Position numbers and translations under genes: made by a program. Below the pieces are notes generated by a model. That model was not told the origin of the DNA and did not search any database. It saw only the letters and a program-made list of their open reading frames with translations. DNA of 64,000 nucleotides from Haplodiscus bocki (taxonomy: Eukaryota), in assembly GCA_965655095.1 (NCBI GenBank), contig OZ296656.1, positions 32,798,001-32,862,000 on the forward strand, given 5' to 3'. This document shows positions 3,001-64,000 of the stretch, piece by piece (within the stretch, counting starts at the first letter, position 1; each line of letters opens with the position of its first letter).

Positions 3001-3954
3001 TTCTGCATTATTTAAAATTTAAATGTATGCCTTTCTTGCCTTTATATTCACCGTTTCCCACATAAAAGCTCGTTTCGTGACGCCAGCGGCCGCGGGAAAA
3101 TCTTGCCCGTAGAAATCTCCCAACACCAAAGAACTTACCGTAACATTTGAAATTATTCAACCTTTATTATTGAATTAATTTCATTTTTTTCATGCTAATG
3201 TATCAAAATATTAAATGGTCCAGAATGCTAATTTATTTTTCAGCACTTGTTTTGTGCTGTTAATTGATAACTTGGATTACAAGTTAGGATATACTTTCAT
3301 TAGAAAAATTGTGTTGTGTTTCCGCTACATACATTTCAACACACACTTGGTTTGAAACGTCAGGCCGTGCGAAGTTGTTCTTCCTAATTTGTTTACCTGT
3401 AAAAATTCCAAGCCGATTATGTACAATGTTGAGTGGTGTTAGGTACTAAAGAGAACCGTTTCAATTATTCTTAATTGGCAATGTGCTTCAACCGGGCTTG
3501 TTTATTCGCCAGCTTAAGAATACGTCATTAGGCTTCAGACATCATTCTCCAAAATAAGTTCATTCTGTATGTTCACACAACCACTGTGTAAGTAATTTCT
3601 CCTTGTTTTTTCAAATATTTAATACGGTTTGGCTCTTTTCATAGTGTGGACCGCCATTTAAATGGAGAGCTCATCGGATAGTTTTCTTGATAACTCTTAG
3701 TTTTATCACATGTCACGGTGATCGTTATAGTTGCCATGATACTGGTACTGGTACTCAACAAGCCGAGAATGACCAAGTCGGTGGTACCCGTTAGGCTCAA
3801 AATACTTTTTGTACCCTTCGTGGTGCAAAAAATTGGCTGTTTTTTAGGAAATTGTTAGGTATATGCAACGGTTATCACGAAAAAGTTTTGGACTACTCAC
3901 AGCGGAGGTATCACAAAAATTTCCTGGATTGCCCTTACCGGAAAATTTTGTATA

Positions 3955-4738
3955 CAGTAGTGATTTTAATAAATGCGACAATTTTAATGCATAAGTCAAT
4001 TCTAAGCACGAATAACTTCGTGAATAATCATTTTGGACAAAAGTACCAGAAACAAAATATTCTTGGAATTTTTAGGAGATTATAATGGTGTTTGTTTGAA
4101 AAATTTCCAACGATAAGAGCAAAAACTAGAAAGCGTTTTTAGCCAAAATTTTCATTCTTTTGAGAATTTCTTAACTTTAAAAAAATTGATGATTGGGATT
4201 TTACTTCATCAATAGATACCTCTGATGTTTCCTTGACAGCTGATATCAGCTGCCGGTGGAAAAGTTTTCAAATACTATTCTAAAATTCATCTTGAATCTA
4301 TTAAATTTGAAAATCAATACATTAAAATAGGATGTTAAAATTATACTTTTACACTTTGCAATTTCTTCTGAAAATTCAAAGTTGTGAAAAAAGTGTTGAA
4401 GATGAAAAATCTGGGTAACAACCAAGACTAACAAATTATGCAATTGGTTTCTTGCTATCTTGCATCATTGTCAAGATCTATTACGAAAACTGCCAAAATT
4501 AGCCATTATTCGCAATGTTTGCTTGTATAGTTTATTTACTCAACTTTGGGACGCGATTTTCTACCCTTTTGAAGTATTTGTTTTGGCAAATAAAACAGCC
4601 GTGTCGTAGCCCTTTTGATGAGTTTTCTCAGAGTACCTTTGTTTACTCTGATCTCCTGTTATTTATATTTACTTCTCCAATTAGGATTTTGTAAAGCGTA
4701 TCGAAATTGCTTAGTCGCGTTAAATAAAATCACAACTG
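3955..4738 (-). mobile_element. Tc1/mariner-type MITE, copy 1 (~784 bp), opposite orientation to copies 2 and 3
   Basis: Left end TA|CAGTAGTGATTTTAATAAATGCGAC; right end GTCGCGTTAAATAAAATCACAACTG|TT (imperfect TIR). TA target and CAGT start. No coding capacity. Body is the reverse complement of 4841-5605. Strand label is relative only. Confidence 0.85.
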
Positions 4739-15499: not shown

Positions 15500-16880
15500 T
15501 TTTTTTTGTCTCACTGTACCGAAAAATTTTATGCATCAGAGAGGGGGGAGGGGGTATCAAGATTTTCCGTCGAAAATTTTTTGTCTCACAGTGCCGAAAA
15601 TTTCCGTAGGGGGAATCCTTTAGTGTTTCATTAATTTCGGGTATCGAAAAATTTTATGCTTCAGAGGGTTATGTCACGATTTTCGATTTTCTGTCGAAAT
15701 TTTTTTGTCTCGCAGTGCCGAAAAATTTGGTAGGTGAACCCTTCTGTGCTGTGTTTCAGAAAATTTCCGATGGCGAAAAAGTTTATGGATAAGAGGGGTG
15801 GGGGAGTTTCAACATTTTCTGTCAAAAATTTTTTGTCTCACAGTGGCGAAAATTTTCGTAGGGGGGGGGGGAATCCTTTAGTCTTTCATTAATTTCGGGT
15901 ATCGAAAAAGTTTGGATAAGAGAGAGAGGAGGGGGGGGGGGGAGAGGGAGTATCAAGATTTTCCGTCGAAAATTTTTTGCCTCACAGTGCCGAAAATTTC
16001 CGTAGGGGAATCTTTTACTGTTGCAATAATTTCGGGTATCGAAAAAGTTTGGATAAGGGGGGGGGGGGTATCACGATTTTCCGTCGAAGTTTTTGTCTCA
16101 CTGTACCGAAATATTTCATTGGAGAACACTTTAGTGTTGCAGAAAAATTCTTTTATCGAAAATTTTCATGCATAGGAGGGGGGGCATCACGATTTTGTCG
16201 AAACTTTTTGTCTCACAGGACGGAAACGAAAAGTTTTGTAAAGAAACTCTTCTGTTTTCCGGAAAATTTCTGGTATCGAAAAAAGTTTATGGATAAGAGG
16301 GGGCATATCACGATTTTCAGTCGAAATTTTTATGTCTCACTGTACCGAAATATTTCATTGGAGAACACTTTAGTGTTGTAGAAAAATTCTTTTATCGAAA
16401 ATTTTCATGCATAGGAGGGGGGGGGCATCACGGTTTTGTTGAAACTTTTTGTCTCACAGGACGGAAACGAAAAGTTTTGTAAAGAAACTCTTCTGTTTTC
16501 CGGAAAATTTCTGGTATCGAAAAAAGTTTATGGATAAGAGGGGGCATATCACGATTTTCAGTCGAAATTTTTATGTCTCACAGTGCCGAAAAATTTCGTA
16601 AGGGAATCCTACTGTTTTTGAGAAAATTTCTGATTTCGAAAAGTTTTATGGATGAAAGGGGGGTATCACGTTTTTCCGTCGAAAATTTTTGGTCTCACAG
16701 TGCCGAATAATTTCGTGGGCATCCCTTCAATGTTTCAGAAAATTTGGGGTATCGAAAAATTTTATGCATAATAGGGGGTATCACAATTTTCCCTCGAAAC
16801 TTTTTTGTCTCACAGTGCCGAAAAACTTCGTAAAGGAACCCTTTAGCGTTTCATTAATTTCGGGCATCAAAAAATGCTAA
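15500..16880 (+). repeat. Satellite-like tandem array, 12 units of mostly ~115-145 bp, including a ~240-bp dimeric higher-order duplication
   Basis: Anchor TGTCTCAC(A/T)GT(G/A)CCGAA or a variant at ~15507, 15582, 15707, 15834, 15978, 16094, 16209, 16333, 16450, 16574, 16691 and 16806. Units also share gtatcgaaaaa, ggataagagggg and tcacgatttt. Confidence 0.95.
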
Positions 16881-41700: not shown

Positions 41701-42957
41701 ATTGAGAACATCCAACGTCTATTTTGAATTCGGGTCGGTAGGGTTGTTTTTGAACAGCTGTTTTTGCCATTTCATTGGCAGTGCAACTTTTTCTAAATTC
41801 TACTGTTTTGAAAACGTCATGAGAATTAATTGAGCTGTTTTCGTCGGTGGGCAATTTGTCGATGCCCTTCCTGAACTCCGCCACAAGTGTATGCGATTTG
41901 CAGCTTCACTTTTTTTTATCAAATAGTGTATTTACCAGTTTGTAAACTGCAGAAGTTATGCCAGTTCGAATTTAAACAGTGATGTGCACTATGTTATATA
42001 TTGTATCAAAAGTACTCTTGTTGTCAAACTAAATATACAATTCTATAATCAAATAGTTGTTCGTCTTCCACTCTTTAGTACTTTGAGCTAACTCACTTGT
42101 TTTTCAGAGCATGGAAAGGCGTTTTTCAAGGCCACACGACATCCCCGGGCAGTGTAGCCTTGAATGAACAAAACCAACGATACATTCTGTATGCTTTCGC
42201 GTCACGATGCCACAACGACGGCTACGTTTAGTTGTTGGGATTTGATCCTTTGGTTCTTGGATACTTTATACCTTTTCAATCTTTTACGTCAATTTGCTCA
42301 CTTGTTCAGCGGCAGCATCTACGACACATATCAAAACCGAAGTTGTGCGTGACAAAACAGCTACGGTTACTAGCACTGTTCTCTCCACTGATATTTATTA
42401 TGCGTGGATTAATAATATTATAAATGGGTCAAACATCAGCACGGAACAGCAAGGGCGGCCAAACAACTCCTGTGTTTGAAACTTAAGTACATTTATGTTC
42501 CCCATGTTACTACGCTACTGACGAAGGAAATACCAAACAAATTCATGTAATCTTGGTCTTTTTACCTCGCGGCCTGGGGCTTGAAGATTGAAGCTTATTG
42601 TAACTCTTATTCATTATAAAAAAATATTACTGACTGATTTTCTGAAACAGAGTATTGTTTCAGTTCTCAACTCTATTTCATGCAATTCTGGTGAACAGTC
42701 TACATTTCGGTGACTACGATAACTTTATGGCAAGAATGATCGCAAATTCGCTAACTTACAAAAAATTCCCCTGTATTGAACGTGGAACAGATGTAACATA
42801 AATACAATAAGTTAATTTTGAATAGAGATTATTTATGAACCACAATTATTTTTGGCAACAAGCAGCAGGATCTGTTATAATTTTGTAATATAAAAGAAGT
42901 TTTGGATAAAATTGTTTAAGTCTGAAATACTTGGTTGATTAATTTTAACTTACCATT

Positions 42958-43470
42958 ATGACTAGTGGGCCCTTAATAGGCCACAGTGGCTACCCTGTTA
43001 CAAACCCTAATTCCATCGATTCCTGGGCATCCCCAAAGAACGCTGCAGCAGGTGCATTTTCGCTTGATGGGTCTGCATCTGTTGGTACCCCAAATATACC
43101 GTCGCCTCTCGCCCCAGATCAACAAAAACAGTTGTCAACACCCTCTTCTCACAAGAGTCCTAACCAACAACCAGGCTCAGGCTCAAATAATGGTGATTCT
43201 ATTACCATCAAATTGCAACTTTATGGCTTTCAGAACCCTGGATCGTTTACTTCTTCCAAATATAGTCCTGATTGTGTTTTGCGCAGTGAGATGTTAGAGC
43301 CTGCGAAGTACGCAACTATGCCGATAACGTTCAACAATGTGCCGTGTGATGCAGTCCAACAAAACGCAATTTTCTCCAAGTTTCTTACTTTGCCTGGACG
43401 CCAAGAGTTCTTACAGCTGCTGCAAAATAGTGAGCACTTTCTCATCTTCTCCCGTCCAGGCAAACCTTAA
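42958..43470 (+). CDS. Possible host coding exon, 170 aa, Ser/Pro/Gln/Asn-rich, product unknown
   Basis: Longest ORF in the host portion. It coincides with a GC-richer block, and all three minus frames contain stops. No recognisable domain. Confidence 0.3.
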   Translation: MTSGPLIGHSGYPVTNPNSIDSWASPKNAAAGAFSLDGSASVGTPNIPSPLAPDQQKQLSTPSSHKSPNQQPGSGSNNGDSITIKLQLYGFQNPGSFTSSKYSPDCVLRSEMLEPAKYATMPITFNNVPCDAVQQNAIFSKFLTLPGRQEFLQLLQNSEHFLIFSRPGKP

Positions 43471-49945: not shown

Positions 49946-50262
49946 TTATTTCTATCGACATTTGCAAACATTAAAAAGTAAAATCTTGCCGGAAAAAATT
50001 AAATTTTGCGGCACATGTAAAACAAAAGAAAAACAAGTCTTAAGCCATGGAGGTGCTCCCCGAATTTATTTAATTCACAGAAGCACAAGTGAAAAACAGA
50101 TCTGCTTCTTCAGTTTTGAGGTTCATTCTGTGTTTCCTTTAGAAAAATCACCGAGGAGAGTAGTGTATAAACTAGAATTTGACGCCAAAAGCCGTGGACG
50201 CAACGGAGGGGGAGTGTAAATTAGGTACCCCCTTCATCAATAAAATTTATTAAAAAGTATAC

Positions 50263-50475
50263 TATGTCAATGGGGGTACACAGGAATGAAAATTTAATTT
50301 TATAAAAACATTTTTTCATTTATATGTCAATGGGGGTACACAGGAAATGAAAATTTAATTGTTTAAAAATTTTTTTGAGTAGTCTTATCAAGGGGGGTAC
50401 ACAGGTGTGAAAATTCAATTTTGTAAAAAATATTTTGCGTGGTATTATCAGTGGTAGTACACAGGAAGAAATTCA
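50263..50475 (+). repeat. Subterminal 60-61-bp tandem repeats (4 copies), probably within the Polinton TIR
   Basis: tcaatgggggtacacagg at 50267 and 50327, tcaaggggggtacacagg at ~50388, tcagtggtagtacacagg at ~50448. Inverted core gtaccccc at 50225. Confidence 0.85.
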
Positions 50476-50513
50476 TCCATATAAAAAGAGCAGGTGGTTA
50501 TTAAATTATATAA

Positions 50514-50984
50514 TTACATACAATTTTTGATCCATGTCTAACATGCAAAGTGAAAAGGATTATTTCTATCATTACAATGTGTTTGTACATAATCACGATT
50601 TTGAGAAAGTTTTTTAAAAAATTGTCGATGCATTATTGGAATTCGATGTTTTAGATAATAACTTATGTTTATATATCGTTGATGTGATAATATTTTTATT
50701 GTTAGTTTGTTTATTTGATTCAATATAAAACCTCTTTGTCGAGCAATAGTTAATTTTTTGTTTAATTCATACAAACCCAAGCTTTCATCAGAAATTGTCA
50801 TATTAATTATTTCATTATTTGTGATTTTTGTAAGTTTAATATCATATATACAAACATATTAAAATGTATGAAAAAATTTTTTGTGACAATCTCTATAACA
50901 ACCATCTATTTTAGAATCTATTTTAGTAATGAGTGGGTTATCAAATTTATATTCTTTTACAACATATAATTCGTTTTCATTCAT
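50514..50984 (-). pseudogene. Disrupted Polinton accessory ORF (~150 aa), function unknown
   Basis: TAAATG start at 50984 (MNENELYVVKEYKFDNP...) is in frame with the listed 50538-50801 ORF. In-frame TAA at 50859-50861. TAG at 50538-50540 may also be premature (frame continues TWIKNCM to TAA at 50514). Confidence 0.65.
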
Positions 50985-51039
50985 TTATTGGTAGCAAATT
51001 TATTGAAATAAAAAATGTTTTTCAATAAAATTATGATTT

Positions 51040-54000
51040 TCAATTCCATGGTATACTTTCAGTTTCATTTATATAACATCGTTTATCATCGAATATAGAT
51101 AATGTTGATTTTTTTACTTCTTGAAGAACCATTTCATGATTAATTGATCTTATAATATAATTATTACATTCTTTTTGATATTCTTTACCAAATAAACAAT
51201 TGTAATATTCTTCAAATTTAATATGTTTTGATTGAGATTTCGAATTACCTTTTATTTTATTTTTATTTTCATTATTAGTTTTACATTTAAACGAATAAGC
51301 TTTTGATCTCAAACAAACAAATTCATCTATAATAACATTTTTAGGAGTCTCTATTTTGAATTTACCAACAACTTTCTTGTTTTTCTCACTAAATAGTTCA
51401 TGGTTTTGATCTAGATTACTAAAATCGAATATATCTTCTAAATTTTTTAAGTCTTTGATAATGTCTTTTGTTTTCATACTCAAAAACATGCCATCGGTAT
51501 CAATATAATGTAATTGTAATTTTTCTTGTCCAAAATATGGTTGTAATGTATCATAATATGTTTCATACATATGTAATTTACTTAATTCCAAAATACTAAA
51601 ACCAACATATATAGCTTTATCCATAACGATTTCATTTTTTTAATATGTGAAGCTATAATAGTTTTCATATGTTTTTTGTATACCATTAAATGTTAACTTT
51701 GATTGTTGATTAACAATTTTTTTAATATTATCTTTTTTAATTAATTCTAGGTTCAATCGATTCCTAATGTTTTCTAAAAATTTACCAAAAGCAGCATTAA
51801 CAAGCAATTTAAAGAAGTCTTTTTCGAAGTCATTTTTAGCTTTGTTTCGTTTTTGTGTATTAAAACTAATATAACCTTCCAACCATCTGCTTTGTTTAAA
51901 TGATATTATTTCATGAATTTTTTCGACTACCATACCATGTCTTACATAAAATTTTAACATCCTATAATGAATCAGATACTTCTTTTTATCAGTCGAATCA
52001 CATATTAACTTTTTAGATTTTGTATAATTTTCCGGTTTTATAGTATTCATATATTCATTATATTTATTTGGATCTATTTTTTTTTCTGGACAAAACGGAA
52101 AATACTTGGTTTTTTGTTTTATATCATCAGGATATTTTAGATCGACTTCAACAAAATAACCAATGTCTGAATCATCTGGTGTATTTAAAATTTCATCTAA
52201 CCAATTCCAATACTTATCAGGACTACCATGCCACATTTCAATTTCATCATAAGGTAAAACTTGACTCATTGAAAAACCATATAAATTAGTAGCATCTATA
52301 TATGTTATCTTATTATTTTCATCTGATTTAACATATCTATCACCCATAACTGAGCTTATGCCGCCACGTATATTATTCTCTATTAACAAAATCAGATCTT
52401 TATCTTGTAGTGCTTGTAATTTAATATTAGTATATTTCAAAGCACATTGATAAGTATAACCTGGTAAACTCAAACAATATAAAGGATTAATTTTATATTC
52501 TTTGGTAGATACTTTTACAAATTTTTCAAAAACATCAGCTAATAAAATAACATCACTTTTACATTATAATTCAGTTAGTTCTCTTCCATCTTTGATATTA
52601 AATAGTTTAATAATTTCTTTAGTTCTTTCTATTTCTTCATCATCAGGATAATCATTTTTTATTTTACTGAAGAAGTCCTCTTTTTTTAAATCATTAACAG
52701 AATTTTTATCATCATTGATACTATTGAAATATTGATATGGATATGCTAGTTTTTTATTTAAATATTGCCATTTGTCAGGAAATTCTTTTTTCAAAATTTT
52801 AAAATCATCCTCATCCAAATTTTTAACTAATTTATCCAAACTCTCTGATAAGAAGCGATAACTATCAATAAATCTAATACAACCATATTTAACTGTAATA
52901 TATTCTTCGTTGGTTTTAGGAATAATTTTAAATTTTACTTTATCTTTTTTTAAATCAACCAACTTTTTAAAAAACATATGACAATCGTAATTACTAAAAT
53001 TATGGAATGCAAATGGTATAAAATTACTATCTTTTTGGTTTACGTTTATATTACAAATATTATGAGCTGGACCTCTGTATTTTCCTGTTAAATGACAGTG
53101 ATCACGAACTTTATCTGATAATATTTCTTTTTCACAAAATCGACAGATGTTATTATTTTTAAAATCTTCATCTTCTTTTGTCATAATGATATCTTTTTTA
53201 GTGTTTTTAAAATAGAAAGCCATTTTATTTTCTAATTTTATAACTTCTTTAACAAACCAATCAACATTATCATAACCTAACGGAGATTCGTATTAATCAC
53301 TCTTTAAAACGTCTTCCAATTCAGATATTATATAATAACCTTTAAGTACAGGATTTTGTTTGTATATGTTGGTTGTTTTGTTTCCTATCTTAGTATTATC
53401 TTTTTCATTATCAGCTTCGAAATCGGCAATAATCCTAAAATATAATGGATTTTTATGAAAGTGTTTTTTCCAATAAAGATGAGATTCATTTGATGTTCTA
53501 ATAGTACATATATTATCATCTCCACATTTTTCTTTATGATTTATTAAAGCATTTTCACACGTATAAGAATTCAAACAACGTCTACATACAAAACTTTTGT
53601 GATGATCTCCTAAAAATACATGTAATTTTTTAATGAGAGCATAATGATTTTTTTTAGATTAATAAGTCAATAACATTATCTGATTCGTTTTTACTGATTT
53701 CGATGGGTATCAAATTATGTTTCCATTTATCTCCATCTTGATAGAAATTTAATTCGTATATATTTACAGATAAATTGTTTAATTCATTAAATTTGTGAAC
53801 ATCACCACATTTAAAACCGTTTGTAAAATCGAAATTTTGAAAGTTTAATTCATTAAAATATTGTATATAATTGTTTACTCTTGATGGATGAGTATTTTCA
53901 CAAGGATGAAGACTAGCTAAAATTGACCAAATAAAACAATATTTATCATTATTTTGAACATTTAAGATAGCAGATGTTCTCAATGGAATTTTAACATAAG

Positions 54001-54703
54001 AAGTACCGTTTAATTCTTCAGTTTTGTAGAATGATATTTTCATTGAATTAATTTTATCAAATATCCAACCAGAATCCTTTGTTTCTTGTATCTGAATTTG
54101 ATGTTCTAATTGAGATCTAACGTCAATATTATCAATATCAGATTCAGTAAAATTATGATTAATTTTTAAGTTTATATATAATTCAATTTCATTATCTCGT
54201 TGATCTTCTTCATTAATTTTATAAAAGCTCGCTGAAAATAATGTGTGATATTTAAATTTATATTGATTTATTAATCGAGAATAAATAACAGATAATTCTT
54301 TTATGATTTTATTAATATATCTATACTCAACGCCAACGTCTGGATATTTACATGTAATAACCAAAATAGAATTTGCATGACTAATATTATGACTTTCTAA
54401 ATTAATTTTGAAACCATTTTTTAAATTTTCATCAATAAAATAATATGGGTTAATCATTATTTTAGCTAATTCTTTATCATCCAATTTAATTTTTTCTCTT
54501 GCTAATTGTTTCAATGTTTTAGGGTTATATACTTTTTATATCTTTTTCTTAATAGGTGTTTTTTCTTTCTTAAAAAACCATTCTGGTATAATCATTTCAT
54601 TTCGGTTTATATTTTCTAAATGTTTTTTGCTTCTCAAATGCTTTTGCATAGATGCTCTGTGTACATCAGCATTACAAATTTCACATGTGCGGCTGTTTTC
54701 CAT
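51040..54703 (-). pseudogene. polB: Protein-primed family B DNA polymerase (pPolB), ~1220 codons, disrupted at five sites
   Basis: Exo motifs IIADFEA, FHNFSNYD and L*CKSDV; polymerase motifs YIDATNLYG, KLLVNAAFGK and YIDTDG; KG motif. ATG at 54703. In-frame TAA at 54536, 53293, 52564 and 51640, plus a stop with frameshift in an A-run at ~53654. Joins listed ORFs 53654-54514, 53293-53574, 52564-53223, 51640-52473 and 51040-51624. Confidence 0.95.
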
Positions 54704-54772
54704 TTTGCGTCCTATTTATATAGTATTATTTTATTGAAATAAAAACACTTCAATTAAAAATATAATAAATAA

Positions 54773-55069
54773 ATGGAGAGTAAAATTTGCACTCAATGTA
54801 ATTTTGAAAAACATATCAACAACTTTTACAAAAAATATTCAGAATGCAAAGACTGTAACATCAAACGAGGTGTAAAACGTTACCATGATAATAAAAATAA
54901 AATATCAATGCAACAAAAAATATATTATGAAAAAAATAGAGATAAACTTTTACAGAAACAAAATGATTATAGCAAAAAAAGAAGCACAGATTATAAGGAA
55001 TTACAAAGATCCTATGGTGAATTACAAAATAAATTAAAAGCATTGGAAGAAAAATTAAAGAATGTATAA
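54773..55069 (+). CDS. 98-aa C4 zinc-finger plus basic coiled-coil protein
   Basis: CTQC-x15-CKDC followed by a Lys/Tyr-rich helical tail. TAAATG start, divergent from pPolB. Confidence 0.8.
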   Translation: MESKICTQCNFEKHINNFYKKYSECKDCNIKRGVKRYHDNKNKISMQQKIYYEKNRDKLLQKQNDYSKKRSTDYKELQRSYGELQNKLKALEEKLKNV

Positions 55070-55085
55070 GTACAATATTTTAATC

Positions 55086-55153
55086 AAAATTGTACTCAAA
55101 TTGTACTCATATACTTGTACTTATATTTAGTATACATACTTGTATAAGAGTAT
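55086..55153 (+). promoter_or_regulatory. Intergenic module upstream of the integrase; inverted copies at 61406-61532
   Basis: aaaattgtactcaaattgtactcatatac...ttagtatacatacttgtataagagtat matches the reverse complement of 61464-61532 and 61406-61459. All copies have the same orientation relative to the downstream gene. Confidence 0.6.
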
Positions 55154-55180
55154 GATGTTTTGTATGTTTACAAAATATAA

Positions 55181-56035
55181 ATGACTCAGAAAAACATTAA
55201 AATATTTATAAACGAAATTTATTCCAAACCACCAAAACGAAACTATGCTACAAATAAAACAGACGTTTATTATATCGATGACATTTGGAGTTTAGACATT
55301 TTAGACTTAAAAGACTATGGTCCTGAAAACAATAGAGGTTACAGATATGTTCTTGTCGTCATAGACAATTTTAGTAAATTTGGTTGGACAATACCCCTAA
55401 AAAATAAAAATGCTCAAACAATAAAAGACTCTTTCGAAAATATTTTGATAAGCTCAAAAAGAAAACCAAATTTAATCGAAACAGACCATGGCAAAGAATT
55501 CTACAACAATTTTTTTCAAGATTTCTTAAATAAAAACAATATCACACTTTGTTCTAGAAACAGTTCATATGGTGCTGTTTTTGCAGAAAGATTTAATCGT
55601 ACTATCAGAGACCTTCTTAAAAAGATCGTTTTCGAACGAGGTGATGCAAATTGGACTGATGTATTACCTACAATAACAAAACAATATAATAATCGAATAC
55701 ATTCATCAACAAAACTGTCTCCAGAAGATGCTTCTTTAAAAAAGAATGAAGGATTCGTTTACAAAAACTTATTAGATAAACGTGATAAACTCAAACCAAA
55801 GTTTCAAATAAACGATCTTGTTAGAGTTGCTGACTTAAAGAAAACGTTTTCAAAAAGATACAACAAATTGGTCTTATAAATTATATAAAATTACAGAAAT
55901 AATCAATGATTCAATACCAAGTTATAAAATAAAAATTTACCAGAAAGATACAACGAGTCGTTATTAAAAAAGATTAATTTAACAATGAAAGAAAATAATA
56001 GTGTTATGAAAAAATTAAGACTTGATATTGTATAA
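55181..56035 (+). pseudogene. int: Retroviral-type (rve, DDE) integrase with two frameshifts in the C-terminal part; catalytic core open (55181-55879)
   Basis: WSLD, VIDNFSKFGW, IETDHGKEF, AERFNRTI and YNNRIHSS. After FSK the expected DTTNWSYKLYKITE continues in another frame (~55855). LPERYNE...KKLRLDIV* returns to the original frame after ~55930 and ends at TAA 56033-56035. Confidence 0.93.
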
Positions 56036-56110
56036 TTTAAACACCCACTCATATAATTGTATGTATACCTTAATATAATTACTCGTATATTTGTATGTGT
56101 TATGAATACT

Positions 56111-57361
56111 TTAACTTAAATCAAACATTCGTTGTCCGTCGCTGCTTATAGAAATTAGTTTGTTTGTTAAAACCAAAGCATAACCGTATATGCTAGCAGG
56201 GACTACTCCATCAAATTTAAATTCAACTTTTATTGGCTGAGAACTTTCAAAATTTTTTTGATATCGGATATCGAAAGCGTATATATTATAACCAATATTA
56301 TCACCATTTTTAGACGATCTAAAATCATCATCAGATATGTATGGTTGAAGAAGGTTATCTTTTGTTAGAGCTTTAAAAGCTTCTTTAATCTGTCCATAAC
56401 CTTGTGAATAATCATCATCGTTATAATTTAATAGAATTCCACTATCAGGGTACTTTTCTGTTCCGATAATGCATTGAGCTGATGTTACTAGAGGTCTATA
56501 AAAAGTGTCGTTGTTCAAATTTTGATCGTTTTGTCTATCATTTTGTTGAAAAGCTACAAATATCCATATAGGTACGTTAATACCTTCCTGAGTACCTAAT
56601 TCGAAAGTCCAAAGATTTTGAGTATTTACCTCTTTCATGAAAACAGATCTTTCAGGATAATGAAGTAGTGTTGGAGAGTTTTTCTTAATTTGAGTCATTA
56701 GTTTGTTATATTCTTCAAGATTTGGACTATAATGAGGCACATACCAATCAAGACTATTAATTTTAACTCTACCATTAGCAACTGCATTATCTTTATTCAA
56801 AACGGCGTTGTCTGTATTTCTTGTCAAGGTTAATTTGTATCCGAGACCGTAAGTCCCTTTTTCTTGGTGTTCGGCAAATCCAAAAATATCTTTTAGATGA
56901 ATTCTAATATGATATTTGCCTTTGATAGTTTTATTATTAGTTAATTCATTTTTTCTTCTTCCTCTACTACGATCAAAGCAAATAGATAAGTCGTCACTGT
57001 CTTTACTCGATGTTAAAAGTTTGTACATTAAACTAACAATATGAGCATGACTGATCTCTTCTAGGTGTTTGCCTGATGATGTTGTTAGCTTGTAATTAGA
57101 GAATGAAGCTATTGGACCCAAATTAACTAATCTAATATCATTAGCATCTACGTATCTGTTACTATTATCAGCTCGTAATACGTCAAAATTTATTTCAATA
57201 TAACTATTTAACAAAGAAATAACAGAATCTTTTCTTGGTATATTAATATATATTTGAGAATTAGCAGTGTTTATTGTAGATATTTCAGCTGGACTGTATC
57301 GTATATAATCACATTTCAGAATCCTTCTATCGACTTCATAATTTTCACTGAGTTTAAACAT
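56111..57361 (-). CDS. Major capsid protein (double jelly roll, Polinton PY type), 416 aa, uninterrupted
   Basis: Size, beta-strand-rich pattern, N-terminal YxPxx...IxIxI..D...L.SYIEI, VPHY linker, PIWIFVAFQ, KYP and IYAFDIRYQ...IKVEFKF resemble Polinton MCPs. Genomic context fits. Confidence 0.85.
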   Translation of the reverse strand: MFKLSENYEVDRRILKCDYIRYSPAEISTINTANSQIYINIPRKDSVISLLNSYIEINFDVLRADNSNRYVDANDIRLVNLGPIASFSNYKLTTSSGKHLEEISHAHIVSLMYKLLTSSKDSDDLSICFDRSRGRRKNELTNNKTIKGKYHIRIHLKDIFGFAEHQEKGTYGLGYKLTLTRNTDNAVLNKDNAVANGRVKINSLDWYVPHYSPNLEEYNKLMTQIKKNSPTLLHYPERSVFMKEVNTQNLWTFELGTQEGINVPIWIFVAFQQNDRQNDQNLNNDTFYRPLVTSAQCIIGTEKYPDSGILLNYNDDDYSQGYGQIKEAFKALTKDNLLQPYISDDDFRSSKNGDNIGYNIYAFDIRYQKNFESSQPIKVEFKFDGVVPASIYGYALVLTNKLISISSDGQRMFDLS

Positions 57362-57498
57362 TTATATATAAAAAAAATGTATACATACAATTATTTGAGT
57401 AATTATAGTTGACTATATGTACAATTATATTCTCATTTTATGTTACATACTATTATACTTGTACATATACTTATGTATGCTTACAATTATATGAGTAC

Positions 57499-58333
57499 TT
57501 ATAATAGATTACATTTAATTAAAATTTGCTTATGTTGTTTCTTAGATATACATTTATATTCTAATAATTTATCAATTATAGCAACAATTTCTTCATCAAT
57601 TAAATAAGATTTATTACCAGCATGTTTTTCTTGTAATAATAATTTCAACCTATCACACAATTCATTTGAATCAGATGATAGAAATATTGTTTTTGAAACA
57701 CCTGAAGCCATGATCAAGTAATCTAATCAATGAATTGTGTCTGACACTAGGTCTACCAGTACTTTTGGTATCATAGTTCATTTCTTTTGCAAATTCATAA
57801 ATTATTTTTCGATCTTGTTGATTAGGATGATCTACATTGAATTTATAATTTGTTATTACTTTCAAAAGATCTCCTTCTAGTTTAAAAGTTTTTTTACTAT
57901 CTCGAAAAGTTATCATATTACTAAATAAAGTAACTGGTATAGTTCCATGAATTAAAAAATCATTCAATTTAGTTGAATTAGGATCTTTTCTTAGTCTAAA
58001 TTGACTTTTGTTATCTTTTTTAAATACTTCAACAAGAGAAGTAGTTAGATAAGGGGCTATAATACCTTTATCATTCAATAATTCTAAAATTTTTTCGTTT
58101 AAATTCTCAATTGCTTTGTTGTTATTAATAGAATGTTCTGTAATAGTTTTTGTTATTTTTTCAGAAGTATTTTTCATTTCATCAGTCATTGTTTTAAAAA
58201 ATTTTTTTATATCTTCATGATAATTCTGTTCACCAAGCTTGTTTTGTAATCTAACTTCTTGTACTTGTTTTTGTAACGAGATTGCCTCATTTAATTTCTC
58301 TAAATCTTCTATATTTTTAATTGAATACAACAT
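57499..58333 (-). pseudogene. Conserved Polinton protein (~280 aa, coiled-coil N-terminus, C-terminal NELxxRLxLL..AGN motif) split by one frameshift
   Basis: ORF 57671-58333 and ORF 57499-57717 overlap at ~57712 (RLLD / IMASGV). SDSNELCDRLKLLLQEKHAGN resembles the DPNELxxRLxLL..AGN motif seen in many animal Polintons. Only the upstream ORF has a TAAATG start. Confidence 0.7.
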
Positions 58334-58414
58334 TTATTTTATTAAAAAAGTTATTCTTGTATACTTACACATATTCAAATATGAATATCATATTTACAAT
58401 TTGATAAGATTAAA

Positions 58415-58496
58415 TAATTGTATCACTTTTTAAGAATATGTAATTGAATCTAGAACCAGATGGTTTTATACGTATTTTTAAAAAGTGATACAATTA
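58415..58496. promoter_or_regulatory. 28-bp inverted repeat in the divergent intergenic region
   Basis: taattgtatcactttttaagaatatgta (58415-58442) and tacgtatttttaaaaagtgatacaatta (58469-58496), 2 mismatches. Confidence 0.65.
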
Positions 58497-58508
58497 TATA
58501 TACTATAA

Positions 58509-59240
58509 ATGAGTTCTATAATTAAAAAACTTAATACAAATTGTGTGTCGTGTAATGTTCTGTTAAACGATAAAAATTTGGTTAAAAATAGAAAAAAATG
58601 TAATAAATGTCTCAATAATATTAGGAATAAAAATAAAAAACCAATTATTAAACACGTATATGAAAACAATACTATGATAAAAACCGATAGAACGCTTATA
58701 ATCGGTAGATCAGGTTGTGGAAAGACATTTCTGATGTTATCACTATTAAAAGATAAGAATCCAGATGATGTTTATATAATCTGTAAAACAGACAATCAAT
58801 ATCCTTCAAATTTTCACAATCAATCTAGAGAGATATTACCCTTAGAAGATTATGGTAATAAAACTATTGTCTTTGATGATATGTTAGGATCGAAAGAAGC
58901 AAAAGATATTGATGCTTTTTTTACTCGTGGCCGTCATCAACACCTCAATATTTTTTATATCTCTCAATCATGGTATGAATTACCTAAAAACACTATTCGA
59001 AATAATTGTAGTAGAATTATGTTGTTTCCACAAACATTAAAGGATATAACTATGATTTGCAACGATATTTCAGGTTTACATATGAATTTTTCAGAATGGC
59101 GTGTTTTTTGTCGAGATGCATGGAAGAAAAAATATAATTATATTCAAATAGATAAAGATAAAGATCTAGATGATATGTATAGCATTAAAAACGTATCAGG
59201 TTTAGAGATTATAGCTATTCCAGAGACAGATGCTTTTTGA
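58509..59240 (+). CDS. A32/FtsK-HerA family DNA packaging ATPase with an N-terminal C4 zinc finger, 243 aa
   Basis: Walker A GRSGCGKT, Walker B IVFDD, TRGRH arginine motif, ISQ, IRNN. N-terminal CVSC-x15-CNKC. Confidence 0.93.
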   Translation: MSSIIKKLNTNCVSCNVLLNDKNLVKNRKKCNKCLNNIRNKNKKPIIKHVYENNTMIKTDRTLIIGRSGCGKTFLMLSLLKDKNPDDVYIICKTDNQYPSNFHNQSREILPLEDYGNKTIVFDDMLGSKEAKDIDAFFTRGRHQHLNIFYISQSWYELPKNTIRNNCSRIMLFPQTLKDITMICNDISGLHMNFSEWRVFCRDAWKKKYNYIQIDKDKDLDDMYSIKNVSGLEIIAIPETDAF

Positions 59241-59313
59241 AAAAACTATGTTCTAGGTTGAAATTTTAATTTATTATGACTAAAAAAGATTAATTTTATT
59301 TTTAAATTCATGT

Positions 59314-59847
59314 TTATAAAAAAGATTCATTTTTGTTTTCATTAACATATTTAGTAAAAATATTACATAGACTTTCATATTCGGTTTTATCAATTACATT
59401 ATCTTGTAATGATTTTCTGTATAATTTATCAAAAGATTTAATAGTATTTTGATCTCTTTCATATTGTTTTTTATATTTATTGTATTTGTTTATGATTAAT
59501 TTGTGTAATATTTTGTTACCTAATGATAGGCCGCAAGCAATTCCAGCTGATATAGGCAAAACAATTAAACCAATACCAGTAACCGATAGAGTTATCGAAG
59601 TTGATGTTGCTCCGATGATAACGACGCTGTCTACCGATTCTAAAACTGCATTCAAAGTTTTATAATTTTTGTATTTCTTTTTTGATTTATGGTTTTTGTC
59701 TTTGAAATATGTTATCATTTCTTTAATGTTATTGATGTGGTTATTAAAACTGTTAACATCGTTTATTTTCTTTTCTAATCGTTTTTCTAAATCAATATTT
59801 TCTAATAATGGTGCACTGGGATACAATCTTTCGGTTTTTGTTTCCAT
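59314..59847 (-). CDS. 177-aa putative membrane-active protein (hydrophobic hairpin between basic coiled coils; similar in plan to adintovirus GasderminX-type proteins)
   Basis: Uncharged Gly-rich stretch VVIIGATSTSITLSVTGIGLIVLPISAGIACGLSLG, flanking KKKYK helices, C-terminal LQDNVIDKTEY, N-terminal LYPSAPL. Confidence 0.7.
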   Translation of the reverse strand: METKTERLYPSAPLLENIDLEKRLEKKINDVNSFNNHINNIKEMITYFKDKNHKSKKKYKNYKTLNAVLESVDSVVIIGATSTSITLSVTGIGLIVLPISAGIACGLSLGNKILHKLIINKYNKYKKQYERDQNTIKSFDKLYRKSLQDNVIDKTEYESLCNIFTKYVNENKNESFL

Positions 59848-59861
59848 TTATATAGTATAAT

Positions 59862-60260
59862 TTATACAAATTTACCGAGGTATAAACCTTTACCTGTATT
59901 GTAAAACGTTATCAATTCTGGTAACGTTGATAAAGCCTGTTTGGAATTTCGAGAAGCAGCTGCTGTAGCTATTTTTGCTGTTAAATCTAGAGCTCGTCCA
60001 GGATTACTTAATACGTTTCTTGCCATCTTTTTTGACACATTTAATCCTTTTTTACTAAGATTTTTGAAAAAGTCGCCAAGGCCTTCCGCTTTTATTGTAT
60101 CATCAGAAACTGTCATAGATTTTTTGCGGTTACAAATTGAACAAACGCCAATTAATACTTTGCTGCCTTTACTTGTTATACTACCATAAATTTTTACTGT
60201 TGCAGATCGATGCCTGCCTCCAACACAGTAACTGTCTGTTTTAAATTTATTGAATGTCAT
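59862..60260 (-). CDS. 132-aa basic virion core/entry protein candidate (Zn-ribbon-like N-terminus, amphipathic helix, GKGLYL tail)
   Basis: YCVGGRH...CSIC; IKAE-GLGDFFKNLSKKGLNVSKKMARNVL amphipathic pattern; TGKGLYL. TAAATG start. Confidence 0.7.
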   Translation of the reverse strand: MTFNKFKTDSYCVGGRHRSATVKIYGSITSKGSKVLIGVCSICNRKKSMTVSDDTIKAEGLGDFFKNLSKKGLNVSKKMARNVLSNPGRALDLTAKIATAAASRNSKQALSTLPELITFYNTGKGLYLGKFV

Positions 60261-60295
60261 TTAATATACAAAAAAGTGTGTGTAAACATGTTATA

Positions 60296-61390
60296 TTAAA
60301 TTTTAATCATCTGTAAAGTAAAAGTCAACGTTTCGTGATTAAAATCAACTTCTTCATTATTTTCATCTTCTAGATAAAATGTTATAGTATTCAAAACAGA
60401 TTTGTTTATTTTTTTATAATGAATCGTTTCAGGTTCTGAAAATACTTTGTAACCAGGTTTTTTATCTAATACAAAACTATATAATATTGATTGTCTCAAA
60501 CCATTGACTACTGAACCATCGATAACATCACATTTCAAGTGTATTTTATTAGTGTTACTTAGGTTTACAATTTTTTGACTAATATACTTATTATAGTGTT
60601 TGTAATCCCAACCTGGGGTAAAACCTAAGATAGTACTAAAGAACGATTTTTCATCAAATCTTACGGCTAAAATTCCAGATTGTACAACCAATTTAGTTTT
60701 CATGTTAATATCATCATATTCAATAACAATAACATTGCAATCACCTGGACAATCTGATTGGAGAATGCTAAAAAGAGCTTCGGAAATATCTTTAAAACTA
60801 TAAATGCCTGGATCTAATTCATAAGTAATAAAACTTGAATTGTATTCATCTAAAACCAATTTAATATCATCTTCAACCAGATCAACTTCTGTTCTGAGAA
60901 AACTTTCGAAATCTTGAAACACAGAACTTGTATATCTCGCTAAAATATCCATATATCCATCATCATTCATTCTTTTTGTTACTTGTTCATTATATTCTTT
61001 AATAATAATCGGAGCTATTATTTCATCTTGTAAATCTTCCACAGTAATATCTTCAAGATCCAAGTCTCTTTCAATCTCATCTCTGACTTTTGTATATGAA
61101 ATACCACCAGCTTTTTCATCAGGAAATTTGTAAAGTTCGAATTTGTTATTTTCTTCGGTTATATTATAAATAGAATTGTATACTACTAAGTCTACTAAAC
61201 CGATCATCCAATCTCCTTTGATTTGAATTGGTGGTTTGAAATGGAATGATTCTCTTGATTTATTCATTTTGAATTCCAAGGTCTCATCTGCTTTTCTGTG
61301 AGTCTGTTCAATTAGTGTTTCACAATTTTTAGTTATTGAAAGTAATAAATCTTCTGTTTGAGTTTTAGGTCTGATCATATTTAAATTCAT
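60296..61390 (-). CDS. Minor capsid protein (penton, Polinton PX type), paralog 1, 364 aa
   Basis: FKPPI..W.IGL, NITEENNKF, PGIY, TILGF, KIHLKCD.IDGS.VNG, ILYSF, PGYK, YKKINK and VDFNHET.TFTL: single jelly-roll penton pattern. Confidence 0.85.
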   Translation of the reverse strand: MNLNMIRPKTQTEDLLLSITKNCETLIEQTHRKADETLEFKMNKSRESFHFKPPIQIKGDWMIGLVDLVVYNSIYNITEENNKFELYKFPDEKAGGISYTKVRDEIERDLDLEDITVEDLQDEIIAPIIIKEYNEQVTKRMNDDGYMDILARYTSSVFQDFESFLRTEVDLVEDDIKLVLDEYNSSFITYELDPGIYSFKDISEALFSILQSDCPGDCNVIVIEYDDINMKTKLVVQSGILAVRFDEKSFFSTILGFTPGWDYKHYNKYISQKIVNLSNTNKIHLKCDVIDGSVVNGLRQSILYSFVLDKKPGYKVFSEPETIHYKKINKSVLNTITFYLEDENNEEVDFNHETLTFTLQMIKI

Positions 61391-61405
61391 TCAAAACTTA
61401 CAAAA

Positions 61406-61532
61406 ATACTCTTATACAAGTTTGTATACTAAATATAATTACACGTATAAGAGTACAATAAAGATACTCTTATACAAGTATGTATACTAATTATAAACAC
61501 ACGTATATGTGTACAATTTTGAGTACAATTTT
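61406..61532 (-). promoter_or_regulatory. Two tandem copies of the intergenic module between the pentons
   Basis: atactcttatacaagt(t/a)tgtatactaa at 61406 and 61464. Reverse complement of 55086-55153. Confidence 0.6.
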
Positions 61533-62602
61533 TATATTTTAATTAACTGACAGGTGAATGATATTGTTTCATTATGAAAATCTACTGGTTTGTAATCATC
61601 ATCTTCAAAATAAAATGTTGAATGAGACAAAACAGATTTATTTATTTTTTTAAAAAGTTTAATTCTGGGTTCATTATATATCCTATGACCAGGAGGTGAA
61701 CTTAAAGCAAAACTATATAAAATAGGTTCTCTTATACCGTTAACGATAGATCCTTGTATACAACCACATTTCAAATGAATTTTATCGATTCCTGTAATGT
61801 TAATTGGCTTATCGCTTTTGTATGATCCTGCTATAATTTGATAATGACTATCTATATCATCTAGTGGATAAGATCGTGATTGTGTAAAACCTAAAATTGT
61901 ATAAAAGAAAGATCTTTCAGTAAATATTAAAGTTTGATTAATTTTTAAATTTGATTTTAATCTAATATCCTCTATTGTAATGTTTACTTTTACATTATTG
62001 GGTAAAATATGTTTTAAAGTATTATTTAAATCGACAACTTCATAAATACCTGGATTCAAACTATAACCTGTTCTTTTTGTAGGAATATATTTCAAGTCTA
62101 ATATATCCATAATTTCATAATAAGATAATCTCATTCTGTAAACTAAATCTTCAAGATCATTGTATTTAGCATTTTTTAATTCTTGAACTATCTCATATTT
62201 TTGATTATCAAAATCTGATAATTTATATTCATTGTCACCTATTTTTATTTTATTTCCTCTTTTTTTAACTTCTTCTACATGTAATTCAAGAGATTTGAGC
62301 TCTAATATTTTATTTAGATCGTTAATAGTTTTTTCATCAGATTTGTTTTGGTAATGACCTCGTATAATAATTGAAAAACTATTGTTTTCGTTGGTGATGT
62401 TAAAGACTGAATTTGTACATTCGAATGAACTCACAGCTAGTAACCATTTACCTTCTTCAACTAAATTTATTGGAGGATTGAATGAAAACGTTTGCATTTG
62501 CTTATTCATTTTAAATTCCAAAGTCTCTTGTGGTTTCGTTTTTGTTTGTTCAATCAGAGTATCAGTATGTTTTTTAATCAAAAGTAACAGTTCATTATTC
62601 AT
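61532..62602 (-). CDS. Minor capsid protein (penton), paralog 2, 356 aa
   Basis: Colinear with paralog 1: TLIEQT..ETLEFKMNK, FNPPI, NITNENNSF, PGIY, TILGFT, KIHLKC, ILYSF, KKINKSVL, VDF.NET, Q.IKI end. Confidence 0.85.
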   Translation of the reverse strand: MNNELLLLIKKHTDTLIEQTKTKPQETLEFKMNKQMQTFSFNPPINLVEEGKWLLAVSSFECTNSVFNITNENNSFSIIIRGHYQNKSDEKTINDLNKILELKSLELHVEEVKKRGNKIKIGDNEYKLSDFDNQKYEIVQELKNAKYNDLEDLVYRMRLSYYEIMDILDLKYIPTKRTGYSLNPGIYEVVDLNNTLKHILPNNVKVNITIEDIRLKSNLKINQTLIFTERSFFYTILGFTQSRSYPLDDIDSHYQIIAGSYKSDKPINITGIDKIHLKCGCIQGSIVNGIREPILYSFALSSPPGHRIYNEPRIKLFKKINKSVLSHSTFYFEDDDYKPVDFHNETISFTCQLIKI

Positions 62603-62925
62603 TTATAATATCAACATTGTATAATTACACGTATTCAAATATAAATATTCTTATACTTGTATGAATAAGTTAACTTATTTGTAATCGCGAGTGATCAACT
62701 TAGTATAAGTACACCTATTCATATAGGAATAATAAAGTAATTATAAGTACACATATAATTGTAAGTATATCCCTAGTATAAGTACAAATATATTTGTATC
62801 AAGTACTTTTAAATAATATTAATTATTGTTTATTTACACTTATTGAAATATGAATAACCCTATAATTATAAATATACTTGTATGAATAATTTAACAAACT
62901 TTATATATTCTTATACATGTACATA

Positions 62926-63123
62926 CTATTTTGTAAGTACTTTAAATCCCGATGCTGTCACTTTTTTAAGGAATTTTTTATTGTTTTGCGAAATATTTCT
63001 GTTTTGTTTACGAGGAAGTGAACCAGCTTTTATTGTTTTTGATTTAATCTCTTTTTCTTTTGTTTTTTCAGTTATTGGAGTATATCTAACACTGTTATCA
63101 ATAGTTATTTTTCGTAATGTCAT
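62926..63123 (-). CDS. 65-aa highly basic protein, candidate DNA-condensing core protein
   Basis: Lys/Arg-rich, TAAATG start, directly downstream of the protease, C-terminal VTASGF. Confidence 0.6.
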   Translation of the reverse strand: MTLRKITIDNSVRYTPITEKTKEKEIKSKTIKAGSLPRKQNRNISQNNKKFLKKVTASGFKVLTK

Positions 63124-63149
63124 TTATTTTAAAGGAAACATTAACGTTT

Positions 63150-63575
63150 TCATATCATTTGATAGTATAAATTTAAAACAGCAATTTTAAAATCAATACC
63201 TAACACTTTTGTCAAATATATTATATATAAACAATAAAAAGCACAATAAGAGTCTTGCTTACTTGTTAGACCTTGTATTTTGTATTCTGAATATAAACAA
63301 TATCCATTTCGTTTTATGATAAATTTAGATAGTTTCTTTGGAGGTGTAATCCCATATGAATCAAAATAGCTTCCGTGATTATATAAAACCCAATGGGTTC
63401 CTTTTGATGGATGTAAATTTACAATGCCAATATCAGATTCAAAAGGTTCGTCTCTTAAATAGATCCCTATATCATTCAAAGACAAAGATGAAAGGATCTG
63501 TTGAATTTTTATATTTGATGTTGCTTTGTTTTTCAATTTGTGTTTTTTAATAAAATCATTGAACATCAGTATCAT
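63150..63575 (-). CDS. Adenain/Ulp1-like (clan CE) maturation cysteine protease, 141 aa
   Basis: IVNL..GTHWV (His), YFDSYG (Asp), IQ (oxyanion Gln) and SYCAFYC (Cys) in the canonical order. Confidence 0.92.
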   Translation of the reverse strand: MILMFNDFIKKHKLKNKATSNIKIQQILSSLSLNDIGIYLRDEPFESDIGIVNLHPSKGTHWVLYNHGSYFDSYGITPPKKLSKFIIKRNGYCLYSEYKIQGLTSKQDSYCAFYCLYIIYLTKVLGIDFKIAVLNLYYQMI

Positions 63576-63866
63576 TTAAACACTCATATAATTGTATGTA
63601 TAAATATACATATAATTGTAAGTATTACTCATATAATTATATGTATCAATACCCATATAAGTGTATGTATAACTGTATGTATCCGTGTGTTTTAAATGTA
63701 ATTATTTATTTTCTTCTGATAAATCAAGAAACTTATTCATATAATTGTAAGTATACCCCAGTATAAGTACTCGTGTAATTATATTATCACAATTGTGAAA
63801 CATATGTATAAATACTCGTATAAATGTAAGTATACCTTAGTATAAGTACTCCTATAATTGTAAGTA

Positions 63867-64000
63867 TCATGAATCTCGTCTTGTTGTAAACAAAAAATCT
63901 TCTAAAACTTTATCAGCATTAGCATAATTGTCGAATAAACCTTTGTCATATAATATTTGTATCGTCGTTTTCACAGCTCTTTGAATTAAAATATCTTCTA
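63867..64000 (-). CDS. C-terminal end of a further Polinton ORF starting beyond the window
   Basis: Open frame EDILIQRAVKTTIQILYDKGLFDNYANADKVLEDFLFTTRRDS* ending at TGA 63867-63869. Confidence 0.6.
   Translation of the reverse strand, partial: EDILIQRAVKTTIQILYDKGLFDNYANADKVLEDFLFTTRRDS

Follow-up and report, generated by a model that had tools for sequence, protein, structure and literature searches.

A TAAATG start-site motif with an upstream T-tract at the genes of a Polinton in Haplodiscus bocki

The element and its genes

Here we describe a Polinton/Maverick element of Haplodiscus bocki in which nearly all genes start at the hexamer TAAATG, a sequence that recalls poxvirus late promoters. 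The element lies at the right-hand end of a 64,000-nucleotide (nt) stretch of contig OZ296656.1 (assembly GCA_965655095.1, positions 32,798,001 to 32,862,000 of the forward strand), hereafter the window, in which all coordinates below are counted. It occupies 50159..64000, with genes on both strands, and is a decayed copy whose right end falls outside the window. The GC content drops from 37% in the flank to 25% from 50,159 to the window's right edge, and the left end of the element is formed at 50159 by AGTAGT, a terminal AGT repeat that we take to be a Polinton end.

Thirteen genes are visible. Six of them are small; the others encode pPolB (51040..54703, minus strand), now broken into at least five fragments, the rve integrase, a double jelly-roll capsid protein of family PF21738, an ATPase of A32-like type, a putative protease and two pentons. 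In a family scan of the window proteins rve and PF21738 scored above the cut-off and Pox_A32 just below it, and an EndoVII domain was found in pPolB; pPolB itself, the pentons and the protease were assigned by similarity to related elements. By these assignments the set of pPolB, rve, A32 ATPase, capsid, pentons and protease is that of a Polinton/Maverick, and the locus does not belong to a poxvirus genome, its gene set being a Polinton's. The capsid matches PF21738 only and not the Sputnik-type major capsid, although Sputnik models were matched by two of the loci surveyed below. From the PF21738 capsid and features of the relatives we infer a placement among the group 2 Maverick-Polintons (mavpol 2). 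The capsid family is very large, with 2672 matches and clusters of 171 and 374 members; the best 120 of these 2672 are 87-94% identical and all come from ENA assemblies. Family scans recognised no RNA polymerase among the 13 genes in the part of the element inside the window, in agreement with the initial annotation of this DNA.

TAAATG at the gene starts

The initial annotation had placed TAAATG at 11 of the 13 gene starts, and all 11 were confirmed on the strands given. On the plus strand the hexamer heads a 98-amino-acid (aa) zinc-finger gene (54773-55069; hexamer at 54770..54775), the rve integrase (open frame 55181-55879 with a disrupted 3′ end; 55178..55183) and the A32-like packaging ATPase (58509-59240; 58506..58511). 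On the minus strand it heads the open reading frame (ORF) that we call ORF-L (50982..50987), the PF21738 major capsid protein (56111-57361; 57359..57364), a 220-aa gene with no assigned function (58331..58336), a 177-aa putative membrane protein with a weak SLATT match below cut-off (59845..59850), a 132-aa small basic protein (60258..60263), penton 2 (61532-62602; 62600..62605), a 65-aa basic ORF (63121..63126) and the putative maturation protease (63150-63575; 63573..63578), which has no family match and corresponds at 29-38% to genes in related elements. A T-tract accompanies the hexamer at the capsid, 220-aa and 132-aa genes. For the 220-aa protein an atlas search gave no match, and for ORF-L it gave weak ankyrin look-alikes that stayed under the recognition level; the predicted model of ORF-L, with a pLDDT (predicted local distance difference test) of 50.6, matched no fold above Z 5.8 or E 0.001.

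The two exceptions are also as first annotated. Penton 1 (61390; 61388..61393, minus strand) begins with TGAATG in this copy, where its T-tract is present, and other copies have TAAATG, which accounts for 98.5-99.2% of contig depth in 4/4 DNA runs of one study (copy variation was taken from DNA contigs, with 40 of 1250 difference rows covered); the rule for the family is therefore 12/13. The remaining exception, pPolB, starts with AAAATG at 54703 on the minus strand and carries TAAAT at -15..-11 of its start (54714..54718, minus strand), a candidate initiator with a short leader.

The enrichment of TAAATG at starts is real and well beyond chance. Within the element TAA precedes 19 of 518 non-start ATGs, so that internal ATGs show no similar enrichment; as in-frame internal ATGs cannot follow TAA, which is a stop, the out-of-frame ATGs alone give 19/467. 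The 50 kb flank has TAA before 51 of 1590 ATGs. From the background of non-start and flank ATGs the probability of at least 11 of 13 is 1e-14, and with the intergenic TAA frequency it is 4e-13. A control for selection bias, in which the bases of the element were shuffled and the first ATG behind each stop was taken, found TAA at 211 of 3597 (P 2e-12), and flank ORFs of at least 20 aa had it at 24 of 435 starts. TAAAT is not depleted inside coding DNA (63 against 68 expected).

The starts themselves appear sound. At ten of the genes the start is the one that a mechanical choice of the longest ORF returns, and the eleventh start (50984) heads ORF-L, a broken gene that runs to about 150 aa in other copies and here meets an in-frame stop after 41 codons; its first seven residues open 5 of 12 long homologues and near variants of them open 2 more. 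The capsid methionine is common to 120/120 homologues (the best 120 of 2672, with gene-caller starts). The TAA is at none of the 11 starts the stop of a neighbouring gene, as had been claimed, and stop-start coupling to upstream genes was rejected; four of the 11 TAAs close short upstream frames of 4-26 codons. A splice-acceptor reading of the TAAATG context was also rejected.

A T-tract at the spacing of poxvirus promoters

Vaccinia and mpox late promoters combine TAAAT(G) with a conserved T at the tenth base upstream among further Ts, and poxvirus intermediate promoters combine TAAA with an AT-rich block 15-19 bases upstream (PMC11980589; here and below, statements credited to papers refer to the accessible sections of their text). 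In the window, TAAAT overlaps the start codon and the tenth base upstream of it is T at 8 of the 11 starts. Ts fill 25 of 33 positions at -14..-12 of the 11 starts (background 0.42; P 8e-5), the highest of 54 windows, and the same positions at non-start TAAATG controls hold T in 22 of 57 and 48 of 153 cases. The position of the tract was fixed by the literature, yet the test was not blind, as the T excess had been noticed beforehand. Both the T-tract and the hexamer are kept in a 75% identical capsid gene from another metagenome (L001). A second locus from that metagenome (L002, 1-723) joins the end of a capsid gene to unrelated coding DNA and is apparently a rearranged copy.

The signal at the gene starts is richer than first annotated, since the T-tract is here added to TAAATG. 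In its layout the motif is late-promoter-like, and by gene content it is not part of a poxvirus. TATAWA matches lie either at -56 or no further than 19 nt from the ATG; none has the spacing of a TATA box (-45..-20), and a TATA-box reading was rejected because the TATA-like words lie too close to the ATG.

Candidate early-type signals and terminators at the replication genes

ORF-L, pPolB and the zinc-finger gene, which we treat as the replication genes, carry ATTGAA 40-51 nt upstream as inverted pairs. One ATTGAA...TTCAAT pair lies in the spacer from pPolB to ORF-L (50985..51039, minus strand), which also holds TTTTTNT 24 nt after the pPolB stop; the other lies in the divergent spacer between pPolB and the zinc-finger gene (54704..54772) and is a candidate early-promoter-like element or dimer binding site. 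Ahead of the pPolB of a distant element (L004, 60-115) stand TTTTATTGAA, a T-tract and, abutting the ATG, TAAATAG, an arrangement that resembles the pPolB spacer of the window.

TTTTTNT is the poxvirus early terminator (PMC3061580). It is missing from the sense strand of the replication genes, pPolB included (0 against 4.6 expected; 0 of 500 synonymous permutations were as low), and occurs 7 times against 8.65 expected in the remaining genes. Downstream of the stop it is found at two of the three replication genes, pPolB and ORF-L. The pPolB genes of four capsid-family relatives have it once against 6.9 expected, and in three elements with the classic capsid it is not avoided (13 against 10.4).

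Related elements

Searches with pPolB yielded 53 loci, 36 of them with at least four ORFs, on 30 distinct contigs. The unrelated Polinton-like contig L013, whose pPolB is 38% identical and whose GC content is 38%, has TAAATG at 7/7 ORFs; L037 has it at 5 of 12 starts, and all other surveyed contigs at two or fewer. The four elements with a PF21738 capsid share a looser form, TAAA(A)n-ATG, in which TAAA stands at a varying distance and in varying frame from the ATG. It lies at most 9 nt from 51 of their 65 starts (11/16, 17/19, 10/14 and 13/16; each P<1e-7). Aligned on TAAA, these 51 starts reveal an A-tract (-21..-16) followed by a T-tract (-15..-8), the layout of an intermediate promoter. One of the capsid-family relatives, L014, has T at -10 in 9 of 11 starts.

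Four elements with a separate capsid cluster, which we take to be 'classic' or group 1 Mavericks, have TAAA at 10 of 50 starts, none significant, and several of their genes abut or overlap. The split by capsid type (51/65 versus 10/50) has a Fisher P of 5e-10, with ORFs that are not independent. The start-site element thus appears to follow the capsid lineage, and strict TAAATG would be a variant in the window family, L013 and, in part, L037. A helicase-type element with a related capsid has TAAA at 6 of 10 starts, and protist-type elements range from 1/11 to 6/6. A pPolB tree of 39 rows from a quick search put the window piece on a long branch in no supported group. The window capsid and ATPase were searched directly in viral contigs, GTDB genomes and phages and nothing was found.

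Other features of these loci deserve mention. The L013 integrase (2740-4251) is a fusion, with a protease-like part at its N-terminus and a chromodomain at its C-terminus; the pPolB of L013 (4984-8745) begins, like that of the window, with a zinc-finger-like Cys/His stretch. Contigs of Polintons and Polinton-like viruses (PLVs) occur in many bacterial and archaeal metagenome-assembled genomes (MAGs) of GTDB (L017-L039, L049-L053, L057, L058), probably as eukaryotic or viral contamination; L037, L057 and L058 are one near-complete element in two MAGs.

Intergenic spacers and neighbouring features

Each gene of the element has one short AT-rich spacer. TTGTA/TACAA occurs 37 times in 1594 intergenic bases and 67 times in 10,599 coding bases, and repeated blocks rich in TACAAT/ATTGTA make up the spacers at 55099-55156, 61402-61517, 56047-56107, 57377-57517, 62619-62882 and 63577-63874. 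The first of these is a hairpin-forming 58-nt repeat (55099..55156, plus strand) with inverted copies at 61402-61459 and 61460-61517; between head-to-tail genes it folds well (z -4.35 and -3.15), and its copies are candidate terminator hairpins or protein-binding sites. Hairpins are significant in 2 of 10 spacers and marginal in one, and no Rfam match was found. Contig joints suggest that spacers have been exchanged between genes in other copies.

A fourteenth gene has its 3′ end at 63863-64000 on the minus strand and its start beyond the right edge. Near the left end, a 60-nt unit with GGGGGTACACAGG is repeated in 3.4 tandem copies (50267-50471) that probably lie inside the terminal repeat. 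The ATPase region (58204-59154) is covered by contigs to a depth about tenfold below the rest, and the ATPase found here may be a minority variant. In the flank, 15520-16861 holds about 11 copies of a 116-nt satellite-like repeat, and a 170-aa open frame on the plus strand (42949-43470) resembles a host exon, with no Pfam match and no longer homologue found.

Interpretation of the start-site motif

We regard a dedicated start-site element as well supported, because the motif is kept in copies and relatives and is joined by a second poxvirus feature, the T ten bases upstream. The initial annotation had proposed such an initiator or dependence on a helper; its first part stands, and helper dependence fits best among the readings, one towards which we lean somewhat. 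On that reading TAAATG and the T-tract would be the initiator for the RNA polymerase of a large cytoplasmic DNA virus, and the element would be virophage-like. When such a virus co-infects the cell, its polymerase would read the promoters of the element, an integrated virophage that would otherwise be silent. Transcription would begin in the AAA of TAAAT, giving near-leaderless messages to which slippage may add 5′ poly(A). ATTGAA would serve the replication genes as a further, early-type signal, these genes would avoid TTTTTNT terminators, and the PF21738 relatives would use the looser, intermediate-type form of A-tract, T-tract and TAAA.

Published work offers precedents. The helper's promoter stands before most or all virophage genes (PMC6723459; Gezel-14T preprint), and entomopoxvirus occlusion bodies carry elements whose capsid has PF21738 as its best match and branches next to mavpol 2 (PMC11296320). 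That the helper is specifically a poxvirus relative is possible but doubtful. We offer as tentative the wider proposal that Polintons with a PF21738 capsid, distinguished by their promoters from host-transcribed classic Mavericks, live as integrated virophages on large cytoplasmic DNA viruses; the window lineage would then run a two-stage programme of poxvirus type (ATTGAA early, TTTTTNT terminators, TAAATG late), which predicts an undescribed poxvirus-like helper.

Several observations weigh against the helper-virus reading or its poxvirus form. No RNA run was among the sequencing runs listed as containing the element, and the case for a helper is drawn from DNA sequence. Strict TAAATG is rare, being found at most starts in one of 30 distinct contigs, and the signal may not be peculiar to poxviruses, as the PF21738 relatives use the looser TAAA form. 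In L013 the T at -10 that marks a late promoter is weak (2 of 7 starts, 9 of 21 positions), and it is moderate in three of the four capsid-family relatives (6/11, 10/18 and 8/14); conversely, the window lacks the relatives' A-tract. The capsid comparison sets four elements against four, and the ORFs of one element are not independent. TTGAA is not confined to the replication genes but precedes two others as well, and the ATTGAA pairs form palindromes. Avoidance of TTTTTNT in pPolB extends to ten protist-type elements (8 against 22.4 expected) and is absent from L013 (1 against 0.5), and it is therefore not poxvirus-specific; it fits T-run termination by viral polymerases in general. Finally, a family with 2672 capsid matches is easier to explain by autonomous nuclear spread, an objection tempered by the more than a thousand PLVs reported from cryptophyte genomes (2026 PLV framework preprint).

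The alternative that survives best, though we think it unlikely, is an element-specific core promoter used in the nucleus by host RNA polymerase II with a host or element DNA-binding protein, perhaps acting on the TACAAT/ATTGTA repeats, and yielding near-leaderless messages with no helper. Besides family size, it draws support from the enrichment of TTGTA/TACAA between genes, where repeated palindromic blocks fill the spacers, from the several element genes with no assigned function, from the VLTF3 encoded by some coral polintoviruses (PMC11131425) and from the expression of coral polintoviruses cited in the 2026 PLV framework preprint. It is weakened by the lack of a TATA box at canonical spacing and by family scans that matched none of the nine unassigned element proteins to a transcription-factor family, and it predicts neither the T at -10 nor the split between capsid types.

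It is improbable that TAA-ATG is a translational signal, acting as an in-frame stop that blocks upstream frames or as a fixed start context for host ribosomes. An in-frame stop does precede all 12 starts other than that of pPolB, including the TGA of penton 1, and AAA before the ATG is common in related elements. However, TAG or TGA could do as stops and are unused, penton 1 itself having TAA in other copies; in the relatives neither the spacing nor the frame between TAAA and ATG is constant; the fixed position of the T-tract is left without explanation; and the flank ORFs, a set defined by open frames of at least 20 aa, are unenriched (24/435).

Very little also speaks for the promoters being a relic, owed to a helper or to a cytoplasmic ancestor that had its own RNA polymerase, or for a polymerase supplied by another resident element or from beyond the window: cytoplasmic linear plasmids with pPolB do combine TAAA-type initiators with poly(A) leaders, this copy is decayed and its right end is outside the window, but capsid genes whose proteins differ by 25% still share the motif, and among the ORFs scanned, a part of the total, none in the four longer capsid-family relatives was recognised as an RNA polymerase.

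Polintons have capsid genes and no RNA polymerase, and the debate on their expression, and on whether in multicellular hosts they need helpers like mavirus, has so far had no evidence from promoters to draw on. A promoter of poxvirus type, recognisable in the sequence itself, would allow helper-read and host-read Polintons to be sorted by their gene starts; it points to the kind of helper virus to seek and allows a cheap reporter test. If true, the helper-virus reading would also explain the apparent silence of such elements in uninfected tissue.

Comparison with known systems

With the vaccinia late promoter the window motif shares the hexamer overlapping the start codon and the T-tract at the same spacing, and the PF21738 relatives share with poxvirus intermediate promoters the layout of TAAA and an upstream A-tract. 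Unlike poxvirus promoters, the motif belongs to a Polinton that is integrated into a cellular genome and whose visible part holds no polymerase gene; unlike a late promoter, it also heads the integrase and the two genes beside pPolB, and it is known here from DNA.

The group 2 Maverick-Polintons (Polintoviricetes) have the same pPolB, rve, ATPase, protease, capsid and two pentons, and the relatives of the window element carry a phospholipase domain, said to be common in group 2 (2026 PLV framework preprint). Searches of open-access PMC and bioRxiv found neither a promoter consensus described for group 2 nor a description of the motif in Polintons, and the word 'promoter' does not occur in the accessible text of PMC11131425 or of the 2026 PLV framework preprint. 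The helper dependence of animal Mavericks, or their activation by giant viruses, has been a matter of speculation (PMC8097293).

Closer to poxviruses stand AHEV_PLV1 and CBEV_PLV1, proposed as poxvirus hyperparasites, which likewise have a PF21738-related capsid next to mavpol 2; AHEV_PLV1 also shares pPolB, protease and A32 ATPase with the window element (PMC11296320). In some of these entomopoxvirus-associated elements no detectable integrase was reported, whereas the window element has rve, and the accessible text of the same paper contains neither 'TAAAT' nor 'motif', and so no promoter analysis.

The window element resembles mavirus, Sputnik, Guarani and Gezel-14T in having one putative promoter per gene, a non-host motif before nearly all genes and, as far as its visible part goes, no RNA polymerase; its integrase and pPolB recall those of mavirus. 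In contrast to these virophages and Gezel-14T, the window motif is of poxvirus type rather than the CroV or mimivirus late type, the capsid is PF21738 rather than Sputnik-type, and helper dependence is putative. Helper promoters on small integrating viruses were already known; what is new is a candidate promoter of this type, poxvirus-like in layout, on a Polinton.

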